From IMG/VR virus record IMGVR_UViG_2711768004_000006: a stretch of 43,743 bases of DNA. One strand, given 5' to 3'. Under the pieces are notes generated by a model. That model saw only the letters and a list, made by a program, of their open reading frames with translations. It was not told where the DNA came from and ran no database searches. Made by a program: the position numbers and the translations under genes. Shown piece by piece: positions 108-11,453 of this stretch (positions are counted from its first letter, which is position 1; the number at the start of each line of letters is the position of its first letter). The DNA comes from a virus (Duplodnaviria > Heunggongvirae > Uroviricota > Caudoviricetes).

Positions 108-274
108 CTATTCACAGTTAACTGAAACAGTATCGTTTTTTTACAGCCAATTTTGTTTGTCCTTTTATAATAAAAAAGTGCTGAAGTTCATTTCATGGAA
201 TGAACTTCATAAAAACTCCTACTTATTTCTTTTAACAAAGCCATTTGTCCATCGGCTTTAACTGAATGTCCATC

Positions 275-1981
275 ATGTTACCGATAAATAATAACTTTTC
301 ATTGTCCCAAAATTCTTTTTATAACACTATTTCCGGTACATATGCTGATTACTTTTCAGCATGGGATAAATGGGAAAAACAAGCGCTCCCCGGTGAAAAT
401 CGGAATGAAGCGGTCTCCCTACTTAAAGAATGTCTCATCAATCAGTTCAGTGAGCTTCAACTGAATCGTTTAAATCTGTCCTCGCTACCTGACAACTTAC
501 CACCTCAAATCACTGTTCTGGAAATTACTCAGAATGCCCTAATATCATTACCAGAATTGCCAGCATCGCTGGAATACCTTGACGCCTGTGACAATCACCT
601 GTCAACACTTCCTGAATTACCCGCATCTCTGAAACATCTTGATGTAGATAACAACCAACTAACCATGCTTCCTGAATTGCCTGCATTGCTGGAATATATT
701 AATGCAGATAACAATCAGCTAACCATGCTTCCTGAATTACCTACATCGCTGGAAGTGCTCTCAGTAAGAAATAACCAGCTGACATTTCTCCCTGAGTTAC
801 CTGAATCACTGGAAGCGCTCGATGTAAGTACTAATCTTCTGGAAAGCCTACCAGCCGTACCTGTAAGAAATCATCACTCAGAGGAAACCGAGATATTTTT
901 CCGGTGCCGCGAGAATCGCATCACATACATTCCGGAAAATATACTTAGCCTTGATCCGACCTGCACTATCATCCTCGAAGACAATCCTCTGTCCTCACGG
1001 ATCAGGGAGTCTCTGTCGCAACAAACCGCCCAACCGGACTACCACGGCCCACGGATTTACTTCTCCATGAGTGACGGACAACAGAATACACTCCATCGCC
1101 CCCTGGCTGATGCCGTGACAGCATGGTTCCCGGAAAACAAACAATCTGATGTATCACAGATATGGCATGCTTTTGAACATGAAGAGCACGCCAACACCTT
1201 TTCCGCGTTCCTTGACCGCCTTTCCGATACCGTCTCTGCACGCAATACCTCCGGATTCCGTGAACAGGTCGCTGCATGGCTGGAAAAACTCAGTGCCTCT
1301 GCGGAGCTTCGACAGCAGTCTTTCGCTGTTGCTGCTGATGCCACTGAGAGCTGTGAGGACCGTGTCGCGCTCACATGGAACAATCTCCGGAAAACCCTCC
1401 TGGTCCATCAGGCATCAGAAGGCCTTTTCGATAATGATACCGGCGCTCTGCTCTCCCTGGGCAGGGAAATGTTCCGCCTCGAAATTCTGGAGGACATTGC
1501 CCGGGATAAAGTCAGAACTCTCCATTTTGTGGATGAGATAGAAGTCTACCTGGCCTTCCAGACCATGCTCGCAGAGAAACTTCAGCTCTCCACTGCCGTG
1601 AAGGAAATGCGTTTCTATGGCGTGTCGGGAGTGACAGCAAATGACCTCCGCACTGCCGAAGCCATGGTCAGAAGCCGTGAAGAGAATGAATTTACGGACT
1701 GGTTCTCCCTCTGGGGACCATGGCATGCTGTACTGAAGCGTACGGAAGCTGACCGCTGGGCGCTGGCAGAAGAGCAGAAATATGAGATGCTGGAGAATGA
1801 GTACCCTCAGAGGGTGGCTGACCGGCTGAAAGCATCAGGTCTGAGCGGTGATGCGGATGCGGAGAGGGAAGCCGGTGCACAGGTGATGCGTGAGACTGAA
1901 CAGCAGATTTACCGTCAGCTGACTGACGAGGTACTGGCCCTGCGATTGTCTGAAAACGGCTCACAACTGCACCATTCATAA
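275..1981 (+). CDS. ipaH: IpaH-family type III effector, E3 ubiquitin ligase (N-terminal LRR + C-terminal NEL domain)
   Basis: N-terminus MLPINNNFSLSQNSFYNTISGTYADYFSAWDKWEKQALPGE, repeated LTxLPELP LRR units, conserved NEL C-terminus with catalytic Cys in ATESCEDR (codon 1352-1354). ORF track starts at 266 (MSIM...); ATG at 275 matches the usual IpaH start. Confidence 0.9.
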   Translation: MLPINNNFSLSQNSFYNTISGTYADYFSAWDKWEKQALPGENRNEAVSLLKECLINQFSELQLNRLNLSSLPDNLPPQITVLEITQNALISLPELPASLEYLDACDNHLSTLPELPASLKHLDVDNNQLTMLPELPALLEYINADNNQLTMLPELPTSLEVLSVRNNQLTFLPELPESLEALDVSTNLLESLPAVPVRNHHSEETEIFFRCRENRITYIPENILSLDPTCTIILEDNPLSSRIRESLSQQTAQPDYHGPRIYFSMSDGQQNTLHRPLADAVTAWFPENKQSDVSQIWHAFEHEEHANTFSAFLDRLSDTVSARNTSGFREQVAAWLEKLSASAELRQQSFAVAADATESCEDRVALTWNNLRKTLLVHQASEGLFDNDTGALLSLGREMFRLEILEDIARDKVRTLHFVDEIEVYLAFQTMLAEKLQLSTAVKEMRFYGVSGVTANDLRTAEAMVRSREENEFTDWFSLWGPWHAVLKRTEADRWALAEEQKYEMLENEYPQRVADRLKASGLSGDADAEREAGAQVMRETEQQIYRQLTDEVLALRLSENGSQLHHS

Positions 1982-2160: not shown

Positions 2161-2784
2161 TTACTCAACGTCAAACGCCCGAATTGAAGCCAAATCATCC
2201 AGACCGCTCAGCTCCTCTTTCATTTCACGCTGACGGCGATAAATCTCATCGTTGCGATCGACCTGCGCCTGCACCATTGCTGCCGCCAGTTCTTCCAGTT
2301 CCGGCATCGACAGTTTCACCTGCTGATTATCGGCATCGCTCCACGCCATATGTGTTTGTGCTGTGACAGATTTTGCCAGCATGACTACCGGGGACAGGCG
2401 GCCCAGTGAGTTGGGGCCAGCATTCCAGATACGACCGTTCCATTCAAACGTGAACGGCTTCGCCTCCTGTTCTGTGCGCCATGCTTCAATTTCCTGACGT
2501 CTGGCCTCTCTGGCCGCTTCCAGCATTTCTGGTGTCACAGTGAATGGGGCTATCTCACCCCATTTGCCACTTTGCAGTTCCTGCCAGATTCGCTGACCCG
2601 TCGGTGCGACATCATCAGCGGTGGCTGTGTAGGGGACTGCCTGGTCCCTGTCGTCAAAAAAAACGTCACAGTCTACTGCGCCACTTTCGGTATAACGGGG
2701 ATTAATGATTTTTTTAATTTCCACGGTGCATTCCTCACGATGTGCGAATAAAAAGCCCGGGCATTGCGCCAGAGACATGAGCAT
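2161..2784 (-). CDS. Putative phage tail fiber assembly protein (remnant prophage)
   Basis: 207-aa ORF directly downstream of and overlapping the fiber-like ORF; C-terminal region resembles tail fiber assembly chaperones; assignment by context. Confidence 0.4.
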   Translation of the reverse strand: MLMSLAQCPGFLFAHREECTVEIKKIINPRYTESGAVDCDVFFDDRDQAVPYTATADDVAPTGQRIWQELQSGKWGEIAPFTVTPEMLEAAREARRQEIEAWRTEQEAKPFTFEWNGRIWNAGPNSLGRLSPVVMLAKSVTAQTHMAWSDADNQQVKLSMPELEELAAAMVQAQVDRNDEIYRRQREMKEELSGLDDLASIRAFDVE

Positions 2785-3763
2785 CCGGCACCCCGGACAG
2801 GGCGCTATATGACCCCGGTAATGAATGCTCTGAACATCCCGTAATGAAAAATTGTGGGGATGCTATATACGTTCCGGTGGGAGTACTGGGCACTGAAATC
2901 CCCACCGGTCCCAGTCGTGAGCCTCTGTATGACTGCCCCCTGACAAGTCTGATGACTTTATCACCGTCAGCTTCTCCCTGGTACGCAGCAATAATCAGCC
3001 CGCCAATGTCAGGGTCTCCCCATCTGTTGCAGACAGAGCTCGCCACGATTCTGTAAATAATATCTTCTGTGGTTATATTTATTTTCACCCAGCCAGTCAG
3101 TCTGGATATGGGCCAGTAGCAGTAGCGGGTGTGATAAATGGGGCCGTTAATGCCGTAAAAAGTAAGGGATTTGGCTCTGTACCTCGGTTCTGTTGTCTCA
3201 GGGCGTGCATCAGTCCACCGGATGCTGAGCACCCCTTCAAACCGTGTGTCGGGTATGATGATGTCGTAGGGGCCAGCAACGGAATATTCACCTGGCAGCG
3301 CATTCCTTACCCAGGCCAGGAAATCACTCTTAGTGTCAAAACGGATAACATCTTCAGGCAGAAAAGCACACCCAAAGCCGAATGCGCCGGGTATCGCCAG
3401 ACGGCCTTTTGTCCGGTCGTAAATGTCGCTCTGTGCTTCCATCGTGGCCGCACTTTTCAGCCCCAGATTATCCCGGGACTTCTGTTGTGCCTTTTCGCCT
3501 GCGGCCCCGGCGCTCTGCTGCGCCTGCGCCACCATTTCCTCAAAGCGTTTGACGACATCCGGTTTCAGGTCGCCCTCATCAGGAGCAATCAGAAAGTCAT
3601 TCAGCGTGCCGGGCTTTGAGTCGTCGTATACAGCAATGTCGCCAACGTTGTACTCGTTGTGCCAGCCCGGTTTCAGATACACACCATATTTTCCAGTCCG
3701 CGCATGGAAACAGTATTCACCATCGTTTCCTGTCATCACATCAGCAACAGTGTGCATCACCAC
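2735..3763 (-). pseudogene. Phage tail fiber / host-specificity protein fragment, 5'-truncated at the IS66 end
   Basis: 342-aa open frame whose upstream end runs straight into the IS66 terminus at 3780 with no native start; followed by an assembly-chaperone-like gene. Confidence 0.3.
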
Positions 3764-3779: not shown

Positions 3780-4335
3780 GTAAGCGTGCAGCAAGAACCG
3801 TATTGACGGGAATGTGTTATTCAGTCGGCAGTGCTACGCGCCAGGGGAGCAGTTCGCCGACCCGGTTTATCGGCCAGTCGGCTATGACGTCAAGGACATA
3901 GCGGAGGTAGCTTTCTGGCTCCACTCCGTTCAGTTTGCACGTCCCGATCAGGCTGTACAGCAGCGCTCCCCGCTCTCCTCCATGATCCGAACCGAAGAAC
4001 AGGTAGTTTTTGCGGCCCAGACTGACCATCCGCAACGCATTTTCAGCGATGTTATTGTCCGCCTCAGCCCAGCCATCATCTGCATAGTACGTCAGCGCCG
4101 GCCACTGGTTCAGGGCATATGCGAACGCTTTCGCCAGTTCTGAGTGTCGCGACAGGGTTTTCATCTTTTCACGCAGCCAGCTTTCCAGGGATTTCAGCAG
4201 CGGTTTCGTTTTCAACTGACGTTCGGCAAGGCGCTGTTTCAGCAGGAAGATGTCGTCAGAAGAGATGTCGTTCATAAGCCCGTATTTTACCGGGCTTATT
4301 CTGTGACAACCAGGATAAAGAGATTTACAGCATGG
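3780..4335 (-). mobile_element. IS66-family element 3' fragment (tnpC C-terminal part plus terminal repeat)
   Basis: Plus strand at 3780 begins GTAAGCGTGCAGC (IS66-type terminus); ORF 3817-4275 encodes the TnpC C-terminus; in-frame stop at 4336-4338 marks the truncation. Confidence 0.7.
3817..4275 (-). pseudogene. tnpC: IS66-family transposase TnpC, C-terminal fragment
   Basis: ...ENALRMVSLGRKNYLFFGSDHGGERGALLYSLIGTCKLNGVEPESYLRYVLDVIADWPINRVGELLPW; only ~150 aa of a ~500-aa protein. Confidence 0.75.
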
Positions 4336-4493: not shown

Positions 4494-5231
4494 TCATTCA
4501 CTCTCTTTCAAACCAGTTTTAACTGTTTGTGGTTTTGGGTAAGGCTGGACTTTGAATAGCTTTGTGTTAAGGCGTTTTCTGGCTCTCTTGTCCAGAAACC
4601 GGATGTAACGAAACTGACGGAATTTATGAACACTGGCTCTGTCGATATTAGCCCGCAGATGTTCACCTCGCTGTCCTCCTCGTTTGATTGCATTCTTGCA
4701 AATCTCGTGATACCACTCGCCATCAAGTTCATAGAATGTTGTTTCATGACTGCCTACATAATCAAAATTGCTTGCCTGGTACACGACACCAAGACAGCCA
4801 CAACGCTCATCTGCAAACGACTGAACCCACTGCACCTGCGGATAAAGTTGTCTGATTAGTTTGAGCGCGTAACTGATTGCCCTTGATTCGGAGTTTCTCG
4901 GCATACAGTCATGCAGCCATAACCGGTTAAGCTCCATATATTCGCGGTTCTGCGTGCCAGTTACGACGCGTGCACCATTGTTTGGATTAAGGGCATAACC
5001 CCATTGCATTACGCCAACCAGCTCCCGTTCTGAAAATATGCCCAGATGAAGGTAGGAATTATTTACGAAACGATGGCTGTAATGTTTATTGACGACGACC
5101 AGCCGGGCCAGCCAGCAACTTATTGTCTCAACCCGTAACTCACGGGAGCCATAACCGACGATATTGTCGTTATAGTGAATAAGTTCAGGCGTGCTGATGA
5201 TACGGGATGTAACTTGCTTTCTGTTCCCCAC
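4494..5231 (-). CDS. mom: Mom-like DNA modification protein (start uncertain, probably non-ATG)
   Basis: Long ORF immediately downstream of and overlapping com, at the prophage right end as in Mu; GTG at 5231-5229 preceded by AGGAA; assigned by synteny only. Confidence 0.5.
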
Positions 5232-5385
5232 GACAGGATTTCCTTGTGTATGTGGGGTGCTCTGTGGCGCTCTGAGATGTGATTTGATTGAGGGTTTTAC
5301 AGCGCGGACATTTAACTTCCAGATAACTGAAGCTGGCTCGTGCCAGTAGCTTGTTACAATGTCGGCACCGTATGTTTCGATACAT
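5185..5385 (-). CDS. com: Com zinc-finger translational activator of mom
   Basis: [35 protein letters not shown]...EHPT matches the Com CxxC...CxxC zinc-finger pattern; GGAGG 11 nt upstream; overlaps the mom frame. Confidence 0.8.
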
Positions 5386-5640
5386 GGCCGCATAACCTCC
5401 TGCTTTGTTGTTGATATCTTTATCACTCAATCGATCGACAAAAACGATCGATTTGATTTATTTAATTGATACAACAAATAACACGAAATGTCATTAGCGA
5501 AAATTTATGAGTTTGATCACTAATTTTAAACGGTGCTGTAACGCATAAGTGCTGAATGATTGTACATTTGAATACCGCAAAGCAAACAAATCAACTAATT
5601 TATAGAAGTCAATTGGTTAATTGCCAGCGTAAGAGGCTGC
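5386..5640 (-). promoter_or_regulatory. com-mom upstream regulatory region with clustered GATC (Dam) sites
   Basis: GATC at 5433-5436, 5446-5449 and 5515-5518 upstream of com; AT-rich. Confidence 0.4.
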
Positions 5641-6719: not shown

Positions 6720-8774
6720 TTACGCGTTATTCACTTCCACCACGATACTGTCAATCAGTACCGGGTAAGTCGCATTTTTAGTGATATCGGTCACGCGCAA
6801 CTTGTCTGCCGTAAACGTGCCGACCGGAGACTGCGACAGCATGAATGGTGTCCCGTCCTTACCATCAATGACCGGCGTCACCTCAATACTGTTGTTACCG
6901 GCAAAACGGAAGCCCAGCGTATGCCATTCGTTATTAAATGCGCCGAATGACCCCAGCTTCGTGTTCTGCGCCGTGTTTCCTTTGTGATACATCACGTTAA
7001 GGTCTGTGGCATCGCTCTGTACGTAGAACGATGCCAGCAGGTTATGACCGGCATTTCCTTCCAGAGTAACCCCTTGCGGCAGGGCAGAAACCGGCCAGTA
7101 CAGCGCCAGTGCGTACTGATTAGCCGTAAGCGCGCCATCGAGTTTAAAACGACAACTGACAAGACCACCTTTACCCAGCAGGTCCGCACCATTACCAGCA
7201 TCATGCTCAAGGTACCAGGGGGCTCTTCCTGTTTCCTTGGTCAGTTTCATTGCCTTACCCCCGCTGGCTCCGGCATCATCCACGATTTGAGCCTTGCCAC
7301 CTCCGGCAGCCCAACCCTGTGGTGTCAACCGTCCTTCAGACTCAGATGCCCGGTAAGCAAATAGCGTACTCATCGTCGTGGTGTCTGCGGGTGGCGTGGA
7401 CGGTTTTGATGGTGTATCAGGTGACGGCTTCTCATCCGGTGGTGTCACGGTCTGCCCACGCATCAGTTCAGCCGTGCGCCCTGCATGGAGCATAATAGCT
7501 GAGGCCAGACGGTCTGAAATGACGCCCCTGCGTGCCCATGAGCTGAAATGGCTGTCACGCTGTGTCGAAACAAAACTGCCCTGGGTTCGGGATGCTGCAC
7601 CGTAATACCCGACAGCCACAATATCCGGGTCTTCCGCCGGAGCATTCGTTGGCGTGCTCTGTCCATTCTCATCCGTCAGGAACGGTACAAAGAAAATTTT
7701 CTGTGCTTCCTTGCCTTTGTAGCCACCGTATACTGCCTCATATTTATCGGTGCCAGCGTTTTTCCAGTAATACGTGGTATCACCGCAAATCCACGGCACC
7801 GTGGTGGCATTTCCACTCACGCACTGCGCAGCAAGCGGAGCCAGGTCAGTTCTGAACTGCTGAACCATGGCCGTGAATAAACTATTATGCTGCTGGCTTC
7901 CTGAGGCAAGGTCTGCCTCTCCCTGCATCCAGACCACAGCCAGAAGTTTGTTTTTCGGGTTTTTCGCCAGCGCGACTTTGGTGCGGCTTACCAGGTCCTG
8001 ATACAGAGGTTTACCGGCCCCCCAGCGTGAAGAATCAGCGGAAGCACCGCTGGCCTCACTGAATGAGCCGTCGGCTCCAGTGGTGAATGCTGACCCGCCA
8101 CGACAACAGGGCACCAGAAGTATCCCGGCATTCTGTGGGATATAGGGAAGCAGTTTTTTGGCAATATGCAACCCCTGACCGACAGTCCCGTACTGGCCTT
8201 TTGCCAGATCAGCTTTCGGGTGGTTTATCCCGCTCATATCCTGAACATCATGCAGGCAGTGGTCTGCCGGAATGATGTCGTTGTATGTACACGACGTACC
8301 GTTGGGCGTTACCGTACTGCGGCGTGCCAGTTGCTTAATGCGTGGGTCCGGGCGGTCAAACGAATCCGGTAACGGCAGCCCCTCGCCGTAGGCCATGCCA
8401 TTTGACTGACCCGCGAGAATGACAACAAAGTAATATTCCGGCTCTGAACTGCTGCCATTCGTGCTACCGGAAGGCCCGGCGTTATCCGGTGCATTCCAGT
8501 CGGAGGGCGTGAGCGTTCCGGCCACGTCAGATGTGATTGGAATGATGCCAGTCACGCCTGAACTGGTGATTTCTGCACTGGGATTACCGGATACCGGCAT
8601 TACCCATAATGGCTCTTTCGTGCTGAAGCGGATCACGCAGTCTGCGAAGGTGATCCCCCCTTTATTACCCGAAGGGCGGAAAGGGCTTTCAATAAATGCC
8701 ACCGTGCCACCGGCAACCTTGACTGAAAACTCTCCGGGCATGGCGGAGAGCATTTTCCACTTGGAGTCTGACAT
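6720..8774 (-). CDS. SGNH/SASA-family carbohydrate O-acetylesterase-like protein with C-terminal lectin-like domain (prophage cargo)
   Basis: GQSNG motif (ILAGQSNGMAYG, Ser codon about 8403-8405) and WMQGEAD motif typical of sialate O-acetylesterase-type SGNH hydrolases; Pro/Thr/Ser linker; beta-rich C-terminus. Confidence 0.6.
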   Translation of the reverse strand: MSDSKWKMLSAMPGEFSVKVAGGTVAFIESPFRPSGNKGGITFADCVIRFSTKEPLWVMPVSGNPSAEITSSGVTGIIPITSDVAGTLTPSDWNAPDNAGPSGSTNGSSSEPEYYFVVILAGQSNGMAYGEGLPLPDSFDRPDPRIKQLARRSTVTPNGTSCTYNDIIPADHCLHDVQDMSGINHPKADLAKGQYGTVGQGLHIAKKLLPYIPQNAGILLVPCCRGGSAFTTGADGSFSEASGASADSSRWGAGKPLYQDLVSRTKVALAKNPKNKLLAVVWMQGEADLASGSQQHNSLFTAMVQQFRTDLAPLAAQCVSGNATTVPWICGDTTYYWKNAGTDKYEAVYGGYKGKEAQKIFFVPFLTDENGQSTPTNAPAEDPDIVAVGYYGAASRTQGSFVSTQRDSHFSSWARRGVISDRLASAIMLHAGRTAELMRGQTVTPPDEKPSPDTPSKPSTPPADTTTMSTLFAYRASESEGRLTPQGWAAGGGKAQIVDDAGASGGKAMKLTKETGRAPWYLEHDAGNGADLLGKGGLVSCRFKLDGALTANQYALALYWPVSALPQGVTLEGNAGHNLLASFYVQSDATDLNVMYHKGNTAQNTKLGSFGAFNNEWHTLGFRFAGNNSIEVTPVIDGKDGTPFMLSQSPVGTFTADKLRVTDITKNATYPVLIDSIVVEVNNA

Positions 8775-8859
8775 CGTCTTTTCTGCCTGTTTCTGAATTA
8801 AACAGAGTCAGAATAGCGACCGCTGAAAAATATGTGTTTTGCGGAAATTCAAAAAAGCG

Positions 8860-9426
8860 TCACGGTACTTTTGGTGACGGAGCTGGTGAGGCAGGAAAAT
8901 AACGATAAAGGGTGGAAAGGCCAATATCAAATATCAGTGCGATTTGTTTACGGGACTCGCCATTAGCCAGCAAACGGGCGATTTGCTCCCGCTCTTTCTC
9001 TGTCAGTTTCTGAGGTCTGCCGCCATGACGCCCCTGAGCACGGGCAGCAGCAAGACCCGCGCGTGTACGTTCAATAATGAGTTCCCGCTCCATTTCCGCC
9101 AGCGCGCCCATTATATGGAAAAAGAAACGTCCCATGGGAGTGGATGTATCAATATTGTCCGTAATGCTGCGGAAGTTAACGCCGCGTTGCCGGAGTTCTT
9201 CTGTTAAAAGGACAAGGTGCTGCATACTGCGTCCAAGGCGATCCAGTTTCCAGACCAGCAGGGTATCCCCTGGCCGGAGTCGCTTTAATGCGCGTTTAAG
9301 TCCGGGACGCTCCCTTGTCTTACCGCTTATTCTGTCTTCGAAAAACAGCTCACATCCTGCACATTCCAGCGCATTTCTTTGTAGCGCCGTATTCTGGTCA
9401 TTTGTTGACACCCTGATATACCCAAT
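8860..9426 (-). CDS. gin: Gin/Pin/Hin-family serine DNA invertase (5' end lost in assembly gap)
   Basis: IGYIRVSTNDQNTALQRNAL...GDTLLVWKLDRLGRSMQHL...MGRFFFHIMGALAEMERELIIERT; the open frame reaches the N-run at 9427, so the true start is inside the gap. Confidence 0.9.
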   Translation of the reverse strand: MGYIRVSTNDQNTALQRNALECAGCELFFEDRISGKTRERPGLKRALKRLRPGDTLLVWKLDRLGRSMQHLVLLTEELRQRGVNFRSITDNIDTSTPMGRFFFHIMGALAEMERELIIERTRAGLAAARAQGRHGGRPQKLTEKEREQIARLLANGESRKQIALIFDIGLSTLYRYFPASPAPSPKVP

Positions 9427-9686
9427 NNNNNNNNNNNNNNNNNNNNNNNNNNNNNNNNNNNNNNNNNNNNNNNNNNNNNNNNNNNNNNNNNNNNNNNNNN
9501 NNNNNNNNNNNNNNNNNNNNNNNNNNNNNNNNNNNNNNNNNNNNNNNNNNNNNNNNNNNNNNNNNNNNNNNNNNNNNNNNNNNNNNNNNNNNNNNNNNNN
9601 NNNNNNNNNNNNNNNNNNNNNNNNNNNNNNNNNNNNNNNNNNNNNNNNNNNNNNNNNNNNNNNNNNNNNNNNNNNNNNNNNNNNNN
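9427..9686. other. Assembly gap (N-run)
   Basis: 260 N. Confidence 0.95.
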
Positions 9687-9725
9687 CAGGATATCACTAT
9701 CTCATCAGGAACAGTAACCGCCATA

Positions 9726-9920
9726 AGACTGGGGTCGGTGACCGCACATATGCCCGGAACATGGGAAAGCTGGGATCTGAATCTGGGGGGCGGCAATGTT
9801 CTTACCGGAATTAAAGTACAGGATGTCGGTAAGAATACGGCAGATAACGTCGGCGGCGTGTATTACCGGCCGTTGCAGTATCTGTTAAATGGAGCATGGG
9901 TGACGGCTGCAAGTATATAA
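9726..9920 (+). CDS. Alternative tail-fiber C-terminal segment (Sv'-like), inverted relative to S
   Basis: Ends ...GGVYYRPLQYLLNGAWVTAASI, paralogous to the S C-terminus ...FIAFRPLQKLVGGTWITVSQL; opposite strand, convergent with U; in-frame stop at 9723. Confidence 0.4.
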   Translation, partial: RLGSVTAHMPGTWESWDLNLGGGNVLTGIKVQDVGKNTADNVGGVYYRPLQYLLNGAWVTAASI

Positions 9921-9951
9921 TGATATTCAGAAGGCCTTCCGGCCTTCTTTA

Positions 9952-10473
9952 TTACTGTGGCTGCTCAGGCCATTTAATGGCGTTAAATTCAGCTTCTGTT
10001 TTAATGGCGGGTAGTTCCATTTTCTTCACCTGACTGATGTATGCCATCCATTGGGTAAGTGCTGCTCTGTCTTCATCGCTGATGGTGCCCAGTTGTAGCT
10101 CCGTTCTCCAGTCATTAATTTTTTCATATGCCTGATTAAGATATGACTGGCGCATTGCTTCCAGTTTTCTTGCGTAGTTAACCGGAATACGGGAGATTAT
10201 GCCATTATCAAACTTCCAGTTTCCTGAAATATCCGTGCCTTCAGGGAGTTCATCGACCTCAACCACAGAAAACCCCGCAGGATACAGCGCCGAGGCGTCC
10301 TGTGATATTGAGCAGATAACGCCGCTGTCAGGTGTTATGCAAAGTTTATATTTTTTGGTGAATAATGGCAGGGATTCGTAGAAATCCTTACCATCTTCAC
10401 TCTGGAAATACTGAACATTATTACCATATGGCATATTTTCAGGATAATAACGGGTTATATTTTTTAGTTCCAT
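9952..10473 (-). CDS. Tail fiber assembly protein (Mu U-like)
   Basis: 173-aa ORF directly downstream of the fiber C-terminus, inside the invertible segment. Confidence 0.7.
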   Translation of the reverse strand: MELKNITRYYPENMPYGNNVQYFQSEDGKDFYESLPLFTKKYKLCITPDSGVICSISQDASALYPAGFSVVEVDELPEGTDISGNWKFDNGIISRIPVNYARKLEAMRQSYLNQAYEKINDWRTELQLGTISDEDRAALTQWMAYISQVKKMELPAIKTEAEFNAIKWPEQPQ

Positions 10474-10524
10474 AAAATCCTCCTGGAAATAAATCTGTTT
10501 TAAAATATATTATTTACTGACTAT

Positions 10525-11453
10525 TTATAACTGAGATACCGTAATCCATGTACCTCCGACTAATTTTTGCAGGGGTCTGAATGCTATAAAATCGTTTGAA
10601 GCATCAACTTTACTGTCAATCTGCAGGCCTGCCATAACATTACCGTACGCAGAGTAATATGCCCCACCGTACATTACCTGCCTGTTCTCTGCTCCCAGCC
10701 TGATATCCTGGATATATCGGGAATCCGCATCCTGCTGTGTTATACCAGAAGTGATGTTTATGTCCTGCGTCCCGTCAAAGGGAACACCATTAATTGTGTG
10801 GGCATTTGCCAGCCTGTTCGCGGCAACGGCGGTGCCGTCCGATGGCAGNNNNNNNNNNNNNNNNNNNNNNNNNNNNNNNNNNNNNNNNNNNNNNNNNNNN
10901 NNNNNNNNNNNNNNNNNNNNNNNNNNNNNNNNNNNNNNNNNNNNNNNNNNNNNNNNNNNNNNNNNNNNNNNNNNNNNNNNNNNNNNNNNNNNNNNNNNNN
11001 NNNNNNNNNNNNNNNNNNNNNNNNNNNNNNNNNNNNNNNNNNNNNNNNNNNNNNNNNNNNNNNNNNNNNNNNNNNNNNNNNNNNNNNGTCAGCGGGACCA
11101 AGACTGTTTTTTGTGGCAAGCGTCCCCAGACCAAGATAACCACGGGCCAGACGCTGGGCCTCCGCACCGGCATCAGCAATTTCTTTCAGGTTATTTTTCC
11201 GGGAAAAGGCATTCGCAGCGATAATGGCTTTAATGGACAGCGTAAGCTGGTTTAACTGCGCCTTATCCGGCTGAATACTGGCTTCAGCCAGAATATTCAG
11301 CAGTTCGGCCTGGAGAATATTCAGCCAGTCCTGACCAATCCAGCTGATACCTTTTTGTCCGTCACCTTCGGTAAACCAGGTGGTGGTATTACTCTGCGCC
11401 GGTGCCAGCGCAGGCATATTCGCCACGCCGGAATTATTATCAACATGAAACAT
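10525..11453 (-). CDS. Tail fiber protein (Mu S-like), interrupted by assembly gap
   Basis: N-terminus MFHVDNNSGVANMP...TTTWFTEGDGQKGISWIG; after the gap the frame ending at 10525 reads LANAHTINGVPFDGTQDINITSG...RPLQKLVGGTWITVSQL. The track ORF 10758-11453 joins the wrong frame across the N-run. Confidence 0.7.
10849..11087. other. Assembly gap (N-run)
   Basis: 239 N. Confidence 0.95.

Follow-up and report, generated by a model that had tools for sequence, protein, structure and literature searches.

A compact, probably Gin-driven tail-fibre tip switch with two alternative tips and one assembly-chaperone gene in an Sp18-family Mu-like prophage

Small serine invertases that act on 26-bp dyad sites with a 2-bp core, with an enhancer in cis, are known from P1 (Cin), e14 (Pin) and Salmonella (Hin). 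The P1 C segment and the e14 P segment switch the C-termini of tail fibres, whereas Hin switches a promoter and not a coding end. P1 has a tail-fibre assembly (tfa) gene for each alternative fibre, and so does e14. The invertible host-specificity region of the prophage Sp18 was described in 2009 (PMC2669165). The locus analysed here is of this known kind, a Gin-invertible tail-fibre tip switch as found in the Sp18 family of E. coli O157. It has the small serine invertase, the dyad sites and, presumably, the cis enhancer in common with P1, e14 and Hin, and the identity between one of its tips (S'v) and a P1 S tip is 52%. The unusual feature is that two alternative tips go with one assembly-chaperone gene. 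While the mechanism is textbook, the version of the Sp18 family is minimal, with a 1.3-kb segment, fibres of ~295 aa and a single chaperone gene.

The window, i.e., the whole stretch of 43,743 nt that was analysed (IMG/VR record IMGVR_UViG_2711768004_000006), carries a Mu-like prophage context with MuA, MuB, Mor, gp44-48 and Mom. Its gene order is of the Sp18 type: gp47, gp48, a short fibre gene ('mini-S'), a convergent single tfa, a tip fragment, the invertase, a DUF6645 protein and mom. This layout is kept in other members of the family (L005, L015, L016 and Sakai Sp18). The region is very probably a host-range switch of the G-segment type in compact form, carried by a transposable Mu-like prophage of the Sp18 family (Table 1). 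The preliminary description had recognised a Gin-type invertible tail-fibre segment, which agrees with the gene content, with the sites read in relatives and with an exact inversion between genomes (see below). The sequence CP066032.1, with a long-read-confirmed inversion (Milman et al.), was considered as a further case of the same layout and discarded, because its segment is of the canonical Mu type, with com and a pair of tfa genes.

Table 1. Features of the invertible segment and its surroundings, in window coordinates.
Feature	Position	Strand	Remarks
gin, serine DNA invertase	8860..9426	-	Pfam Resolvase 1.6e-51 and HTH_7 4.9e-15; 188 of 190 codons visible, first 2 under N-run
Presumed Fis-bound enhancer (sis-like)	9348..9411		gin nt 22-85, 5' coding part; assignment of Fis sites presumed from the literature (PMC3798978, citing Kahmann 1985)
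N-run 1	9427..9686		260 N; by homology hides 202 nt: 6 nt of gin, 65-nt intergenic, left 26-bp site, outer 105 nt of left repeat arm
S'v, alternative fibre C-terminus	9687..9920	+	77 visible codons and stop; frame open from gap edge; 9687-9709 still inverted repeat
GC-rich hairpin between convergent S'v and tfa stops	9929..9948		Terminator-like on + strand (terminator scan); fold -15.9 kcal/mol, z = -4.0
U/tfa, sole tail-fibre assembly gene of segment	9952..10473	-	Caudo_TAP E = 4.8e-19; co-oriented with Sv
AT-rich spacer, Sv stop to tfa start	10474..10524		51 nt; 2 nt in Mu; 79-121 nt in relatives
Sv, variable C-terminal part of S, current orientation	10525..10848	-	Tip matches Mu S residues 435-502 in 5yvq_A; 10745-10848 is visible inner part of right repeat arm, IRb version
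N-run 2	10849..11087		239 N; by homology hides 201 nt: 24 nt of repeat, right 26-bp site, 151 nt of Sc
Sc, constant N-terminal part of S	11088..11453	-	First 122 codons visible; S residues 1-198 align with Mu S 1-191, E ~ 1e-43

The window is 100% identical from 8001 to 9426 to NCCP 13983 (L002), whose gin encodes 190 aa (WP_000904914.1). The Gin protein is 73.9% identical to that of Mu and 81% identical to the O157 invertase, and it keeps the catalytic Ser9 within IGYIRVSTNDQ. The invertase-specific residues that contact Fis and the enhancer are, in Hin, Gln151, Arg154 and Leu155, together with the basic helix B (PMC3798978). The corresponding EQIARLL motif (Q-x-x-R-L) and the KRALKRLR patch of helix B (KRALKR) are conserved here as in Mu Gin. 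When gin is compared with its Mu counterpart in blocks of 60 nt, similarity is highest in the first block (82%, with 55-78% elsewhere). Hardly any differences from Mu occur at nt 18-42 and 68-85, and a 15-bp G...C match resembling a Fis core is present at nt 71-85 in all three invertase genes compared. In L002, ~107 bp separate the proximal of these two blocks from the centre of the left site; the distance between enhancer and site in Hin is ~100 bp (PMC3798978). We presume that inversion depends on Fis and this enhancer, and that the switch is active in this strain. Not every copy in the family can be active, since gin is frameshifted in the relatives L001 and L015 and the left half-site has a 1-nt deletion in L005 and L015.

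The crossover sites themselves had been expected under the N-runs, of which the window has exactly two. Homology to gap-free relatives places them there: gap 1 corresponds to positions 3628-3829 of L002, with the left site at 3699-3724, and gap 2 to positions 4992-5192, with the right site at 5016-5041. The 202 nt of the first gap are also present in L027. The left gix-type site reads TTCCTGAAAACC-TC-GGTTTACGGGAA and the right one, in reverse complement, TTATCGATAACG-TC-GGTTTACGGGAA, the latter within the codons FIDNVGLRE of S. Both are 26-bp dyads in inverted orientation with identical TC cores, as read in L002 and L010, whose flanks are 99-100% identical to the window. The right site agrees with Mu gix in 22 of 26 positions, the core among them, and occupies the same codons of S. 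Each site stands at the outer edge of an imperfect inverted repeat of ~150 bp in the near-identical gap-free relatives, and by homology an inverted repeat is present at the gaps as expected; the first N-run does swallow the 5' end of gin, although only its first 6 nt, i.e., two codons. By our own arithmetic, the chance that two such runs both cover given 26-bp sites in 43.7 kb is ~5e-5. The N-runs are longer than the corresponding sequence of every relative (260 and 239 versus 202 and 201 nt), so the positions of the sites inside them are only approximate. The lengths of the N-runs are only estimates, and we rejected the idea that the Ns mask real sequence one to one: in all relatives, even in L010 whose flanks are 100% identical, the corresponding sequence amounts to 403 nt, against 499 N in the window.

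The inversion is real and recent. The segment of E. coli FORC_069 (L004) is identical to an in-silico core-to-core inversion of that of NCCP 13983, with 0 mismatches in 1,640 nt, and the two genomes are nearly identical in length. The same comparison gives 2 mismatches for L010. The claim that switching is still active is thus upheld in the form of recent or ongoing inversion. Among the 5,426 complete genomes searched, the constant part of S is joined to S'v in 24 and to Sv in 6, and three strains have two copies in opposite states. In the proposed mechanism, Gin would bind the two inverted 26-bp gix-type sites, one inside S and the other 65 nt upstream of gin, and, with host Fis on the enhancer in the 5' end of gin, would cut at the identical TC cores and flip a segment of ~1.32 kb, gin being encoded just outside.

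The inversion would join Sc (~180 aa) to either of two C-terminal modules, each made of ~45 aa encoded by the repeat and a tip of ~70 aa that presumably binds the receptor, the two tips probably differing in specificity. The tips had been described as paralogous, and they are: the local alignment of Sv and S'v scores 70, against 23.8 +/- 4.5 for shuffled sequences (z = 10; 0 of 500 shuffles reach 70), with 15 of 42 positions identical in the alignable part. Homology also links both of them to the C-terminal ~70 aa of Mu S and S'. The second tip on the opposite strand is a real open frame, while the start assigned to it at 9726 was arbitrary. A word-indexed protein search with the S'v tip returned just 5 close family members and was replaced by a translated search of phage genomes, where the tips of P1 S, P2 H and SfMu gp52 share 44-52% identity with S'v. 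Fusion of the alternative tip to the constant part in frame, on which the initial interpretation depended, is seen in L003, L004 and L010 (the first two have it annotated as a 293-aa open reading frame), and the 24 complete genomes mentioned above carry the Sc-S'v junction. The fibres in complete genomes are 296 aa (Sc-Sv) and 293 aa (Sc-S'v) long; they are 'mini-S' proteins without ~240 of the central residues of Mu S. Both tips are under purifying selection, including the orphan S'v (dN/dS of 0.06-0.10 at dS of ~0.27-0.29), which is intact in all genomes seen.

The tfa gene of the segment encodes the same protein as WP_000421093.1 and matches Mu U in the structure 5yvq_B (E = 4.2e-16). As the preliminary description proposed, the alternative tip has no second assembly gene beside it: just 31 nt separate the stops of S'v and tfa, which leaves no room for one. 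This difference from Mu is confirmed, but it is not special to the window, being kept across the Sp18-type family including O157 Sakai (ECs_4989-4992). The spacers 5' of tfa are AT-rich yet not conserved. A scan for sigma-70 promoters gave hits at chance level (6 versus 4.3 +/- 2.2 expected), none of them upstream of tfa on its own strand; promoters of the Mor/C late type lie outside the scope of such a scan. Assigning Tfa to one of the tips by similarity was uninformative, as its N-domain is equidistant (34-39% identity) from Mu U and U', P2 G, P1 U and SfMu gp50 and gp51.

Could the orientation differences have arisen without Gin, by RecA-type homologous recombination between the ~150-bp inverted repeats? 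The polymorphisms of the repeat arms show that such passive inversion has some footing: in L003 each arm keeps all of its 18 polymorphic positions with the flanks, in L008 only 3-4 of them, hence exchange or conversion occurs at variable points inside the repeat. A second gix site in the inner identity block of 23 nt was considered as an explanation of L003, but it matches at best 7 of 12 positions per half-site by eye, and homologous exchange or gene conversion is preferred. The arms thus also exchange by routes that are not site-specific, and not every orientation difference need be made by Gin. However, the exchange in L004 and L010 is confined to the 19-nt block that holds the core, and not to the longer identity blocks of 32 or 23 nt. 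The canonical pairings of arm and tip (IRa-Sv and IRb-S'v) dominate, in at least 22 of about 30 genomes, and an intact Mu-like Gin adjoins the segment, with conserved sites and enhancer-like blocks. We consider it very unlikely that RecA-type recombination accounts for the differences, and retain inversion by Gin. It is also improbable, if slightly less so, that the S'v side is the decaying remnant of a former S'-U' cassette, with only Sv-U infectious and the flipped state an OFF state. This would fit the lack of a tfa co-oriented with S'v and of a tfa promoter above chance, as well as the homologous tips of P2, P1 and SfMu, which all have a tfa 0-2 nt downstream. It fits poorly with the low dN/dS and integrity of S'v, with the S'v-fused state being ~4 times commoner than the Sv state, and with a layout kept between family members whose Tfa proteins are just 61% identical. 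A further reading, which we advance tentatively and find rather doubtful, would be that the Sp18-type switch is a streamlined design in which one generalist Tfa serves both tips though co-transcribed with one only, or that S'v, unlike its homologues in P2, P1 and Mu, folds without a dedicated chaperone or borrows one from co-resident prophages. In this reading there may also be a second layer of variation: the repeat patch of ~105 nt exists in two versions and would be reassorted with the two tips by recombination of its own, for a total of four kinds of fibre.

The cause of the assembly gaps has to be weighed separately. They had been taken as the sign of a population with mixed orientations, which is unsupported as argued, because the repeat alone breaks drafts: 9 of the 32 IMG/VR contigs of the family end there, 0-124 nt past the end of Sc. 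The best explanation of the two N-runs is that they are scaffold gaps, since short-read assemblies fail at the inverted repeat and the switch. That the culture was mixed and that the assembler met two alternative junctions per site has a chance somewhat short of even. Lysogens of the Mu type form mixed cultures, according to the Mu literature summarised in PMC4406740, and Gin is intact in its visible part. Moreover, if a gix flip relates the window to L003, whose inner segment is 100% identical, the two arms would be just ~88% alike, their perfect runs reaching at most 32 nt, and the repeat by itself would not stop an assembler with k > 32. On the other hand, the hidden left arm could be of the IRb version like the visible right arm, as on the gin side of L002 (100% identical to the window), which would make a perfect repeat of >86 nt; the repeat accounts equally well for the frequent breaks in independent drafts if k was small or the assembler worked by overlaps. 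A mixed-culture bubble further predicts flanking contigs that reach the sites, and the contigs of the window end 71 and 151 nt outside them, in sequence that is unique in the relatives. These end positions are predicted neither by a two-orientation bubble nor by a simple collapse of the repeat.

N-runs that flank a small segment beside a recombinase gene can thus mark programmed inversion in a draft assembly, and sites hidden under Ns are recoverable from complete relatives. The prophage occurs commonly in STEC, EIEC and Shigella backgrounds, and near-identical isolates differ in its orientation, which matters for outbreak typing with structural variants. A shared or absent chaperone, or variation of the repeat patch, would each, if true, modify the accepted rule that every alternative fibre end has its own cognate Tfa. 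If S'v truly assembles without a co-expressed cognate Tfa, the segment would offer a minimal system to study Tfa specificity and to engineer switchable receptor-binding modules.

Among described elements, Sakai Sp18 (ECs_4989-ECs_4993) shares with the window the order of fibre, convergent single tfa, short tip fragment, DNA invertase, DUF6645 protein and mom, and the constant part of S plus repeat is ~92% identical at the DNA level. The two differ in the tips (S'v and the O157 tip are identical at 32 of 69 positions, and Sv is more distant), in tfa (61%) and in Gin (81%), and the copy in the window adjoins ipaH3 in a Shigella/EIEC-like background. The resemblance to the G segment of Mu extends to a homologous invertase (74%), whose gene adjoins the segment on the outside and has conserved enhancer-like blocks at the 5' end, to sites alike at 22 of 26 positions with the TC core in the same codons of S, to homologous Sc, Tfa (5yvq_B) and last ~70 aa of both tips, and to a transposable Mu-like host element. 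In contrast, the segment is ~1.32 kb long here and ~3 kb in Mu, the fibres have 293 and 296 aa instead of 504, for want of ~240 central residues, and the inverted repeat is imperfect, coding and ~150 bp long instead of 34 bp. A spacer of 51-121 nt precedes tfa, a DUF6645/SASA esterase gene stands between gin and mom, and there is one tfa here where Mu, SfMu and P1 have two.

The sequence hidden by the two N-runs was read from relatives, namely complete E. coli genomes carrying the same prophage and IMG/VR contigs. Identity between the window and E. coli NCCP 13983 (L002) is 100% over 8001-9426, 99% in the inner piece, and 96% on the baseplate side; one IMG/VR contig (L010) matches both flanks at 100%. 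Gap 1 corresponds to L002 3628-3829 (6 nt from the start of gin, 65 nt of intergenic DNA, a 26-bp site, and 105 nt of repeat), and gap 2 to L002 4992-5192 (24 nt of repeat, the partner site, and 151 nt of Sc, the constant N-terminal part of fibre S). The left site (L002 3699-3724) is TTCCTGAAAACC-TC-GGTTTACGGGAA and the right one (L002 5016-5041) is, as reverse complement, TTATCGATAACG-TC-GGTTTACGGGAA. An imperfect inverted repeat of ~150 bp has the two sites at its outer ends; its arms are 90% and 84% complementary in two parts, with a longest perfect run of 32 nt. By homology, crossover sites do lie under both N-runs, the only two in the window, as the preliminary description had proposed. 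The gap equivalents measure 202 and 201 nt in all relatives, including L027, an IMG/VR contig (90-98% identical) in the window's orientation, versus 260 and 239 N in the window. It follows that the N-runs mark scaffold gaps of estimated size and do not mask sequence base for base.

Features of the window, including the left flank of the prophage (strand in the third column)
Feature	Position	Strand	Remarks
Left flank gene	266-1981	+	
Left flank gene	2161-3763	-	
Left flank gene	3817-4275	-	
Left flank gene	4494-5426	-	
SASA (sialate O-acetylesterase-type) + DUF6645 protein	6720-8774	-	684 aa; directly downstream of gin
gin, serine recombinase (190-aa type)	8860-9426 (visible)	-	Pfam Resolvase + HTH_7
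N-run 1	9427-9686		260 N
S'v open frame, gap edge to stop	9687-9920	+	
Hairpin between S'v and tfa stops	9929-9948		z = -4.0
tfa, 173-aa ORF	9952-10473	-	Pfam Caudo_TAP (tail-fibre assembly)
Fibre gene S, 3' end	10525-10848	-	
N-run 2	10849-11087		239 N
Fibre gene S, 5' end (same gene)	11088-11453	-	

The segment, 1,317 bp from core to core, does invert at the level of the family, i.e., the Sp18-type Mu-like prophages of E. coli and Shigella. In NCCP 13905 (L003) and FORC_069 (L004), the flanking proteins are those of L002 by accession, the inner piece is on the opposite strand, and the fibre ORF continues in frame into the alternative tip S'v (293 aa) in place of Sv. When L002 is inverted in silico between the core dinucleotides, it matches L004 with 0 mismatches and L010 with 2 (1,640-nt frame), bearing out the earlier claim of a Gin-type invertible fibre segment. 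Arm differences reach the core on the outside and resume 5 nt past the site on the inside, so the exchange is limited to a 19-nt block with the core. The near-equal genome lengths of NCCP 13983 (5,189,943 bp), FORC_029 (5,189,944 bp), and FORC_069 (5,189,917 bp) suggest one clone caught in both states. Searched for the two junctions, 5,426 complete genomes gave 6 Sc-Sv and 24 Sc-S'v, counts that include near-clonal genomes and are thus non-independent. In IMG/VR, there are 2 versus 8 for the window's subtype and 1 versus 11 for the O157 subtype. The same genome searches found three strains (DLI.5a, TOE17, and AST46) with two prophage copies at different chromosomal places in opposite states, consistent with replicative transposition or double lysogeny. 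Some copies look disabled, judging from their sequence: gin is frameshifted in DLI.5a (L001 3061-3632) and STEC2017-197 (L015 4245-4735), and the left half-site is one A short (CTGAAACC in place of CTGAAAACC) in O157 PA20 (L005) and STEC2017-197.

The window's only two N-runs would both cover the sites by chance with a probability of about 5e-5 by our arithmetic, and the gaps are clearly caused by the switch or its repeat. The preliminary description went further and took them as evidence of a population in both orientations. This is plausible because Mu-type lysogens are usually mixed, but we regard it as possible rather than probable, and the gaps do not show it. Nine of the 32 family contigs in IMG/VR end 0-124 nt beyond the end of Sc, so independent drafts routinely fail at this spot. 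Moreover, the window's flank contigs break off short of the sites, by 71 and 151 nt, within stretches that occur only once in relatives, an outcome predicted neither by a two-orientation bubble nor by plain repeat collapse.

The arms also undergo exchange that is not site-specific: of the 18 polymorphic positions in each repeat arm, all remain with the flanks in L003 and only 3-4 in L008, another relative. There are two versions, IRa and IRb, of a ~105-nt repeat patch that runs from the gix site to an inner 23-nt identity block (window 10763-10848; L002 3725-3829 and 4911-5015); they alter fibre residues (K/R and TPRN/NAHT). The window pairs IRb with Sv, the rarer pairing, shared with L027. 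All four patch-tip combinations occur and the exchange boundaries vary (L003, L008, L027), a sign that, besides Gin inversion, the arms undergo gene conversion or homologous exchange. A RefSeq 65-aa "hypothetical protein" (L002 3646-3843, minus strand; L003 4568-4765, plus strand), antisense to the repeat-encoded fibre part and exiting the segment towards gin, is probably spurious, from the repeat's open frame.

The alternative tip indeed has no second assembly gene, as first described: only 31 nt, hairpin included, separate the S'v and tfa stops. O157 PA20, STEC2017-197, SCU-171, and Sakai Sp18 (ECs_4989-4992) have the same layout, which is therefore a conserved design and not a local deletion. 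The S'v-like tips of P2 (H), P1 (S), and SfMu (gp52), 44-52% identical to S'v, are each followed after 0-2 nt by a co-oriented tfa, whereas S'v has none, so its lack of one is derived. Strong purifying selection acts on S'v (dN/dS 0.06-0.10 at dS 0.27-0.29), and the S'v-fused state is the commoner one. Between L004 and L015/L016 (another family member), tfa is 88% identical in DNA while the co-oriented tip is swapped for an unrelated one (49% nt identity). Together, these three findings speak for a functional S'v and for a Tfa that is not restricted to the co-transcribed tip. They fit a generalist Tfa. The fibre-binding domain of the window's Tfa is equally far from every reference Tfa. We found no promoter to express tfa in the flipped state. 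The AT-rich, non-coding spacer before tfa (window 10474-10524) varies in sequence and length across the family (51-121 nt, equivalents in L005, L015, and L016 included); Mu, P2, and SfMu have 2 nt there. PMC9608196 (citing North et al. 2019) states that Mu Tfa remains on the fibre tip in the virion, which makes the assembly of S'v fibres a real question.

The remainder of the window encodes MuA, MuB, Mor, sheath, gp44-47, a DNA-circularisation protein, and a Mom-family protein, with a Phage_Mu_Gp48 (Pfam) gene upstream of fibre S: this is a complete transposable Mu-like prophage. On its left lie a T3SS effector of the ipaH3-type NEL E3-ligase class, the N-terminal remnant of a lambdoid tail fibre carrying DUF4376, and a fragment of an IS66 transposase; the prophage Mom-family gene comes next. 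The prophage therefore adjoins or interrupts another prophage remnant in a Shigella/EIEC-like background. A partial S'v protein in databases, 100% identical, comes from Shigella sonnei. The SASA/DUF6645 gene is kept throughout the family (ECs_4993 in Sakai), at a place where Mu has only com/mom; it may encode a tail enzyme that modifies receptors, or it may serve in lysogenic conversion.

Both Mu gix sites are TTATCCAAAACC-TC-GGTTTACAGGAA; the site inside S agrees with them in 22 of 26 positions, the TC core included, and occupies homologous fibre codons (FIDNVGLRETV here, FIQNLGLQETV in Mu). The window's Gin shares 73.9% identity with its Mu counterpart and retains Ser9, the Q-x-x-R-L motif, and the basic patch of helix B, given as specific to Fis/enhancer-dependent invertases (PMC3798978). 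The gin DNA is most like that of Mu in its first 60 nt (82%). Near-identical blocks span nt 18-42 and nt 68-85, and the proximal block lies ~107 bp from the left site. By analogy, these blocks would mark a putative enhancer, placed correspondingly in Mu and Hin by literature cited in PMC3798978. Fibre residues 1-198 match residues 1-191 of the solved Mu S (5yvq_A), and 229-294 match 435-502, so the fibre is a "mini-S" without about 240 central Mu S residues; Tfa matches Mu U (5yvq_B). The two tips, previously described as paralogous, share homology (z = 10), also with the Mu S and S' tips (z = 7.6-19). The searchable literature yielded no analysis of the sites, the single tfa, or the orientation polymorphism. 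The window thus adds a member to a known family, whose switch belongs to a textbook class, with the single tfa as the one under-studied variant feature.
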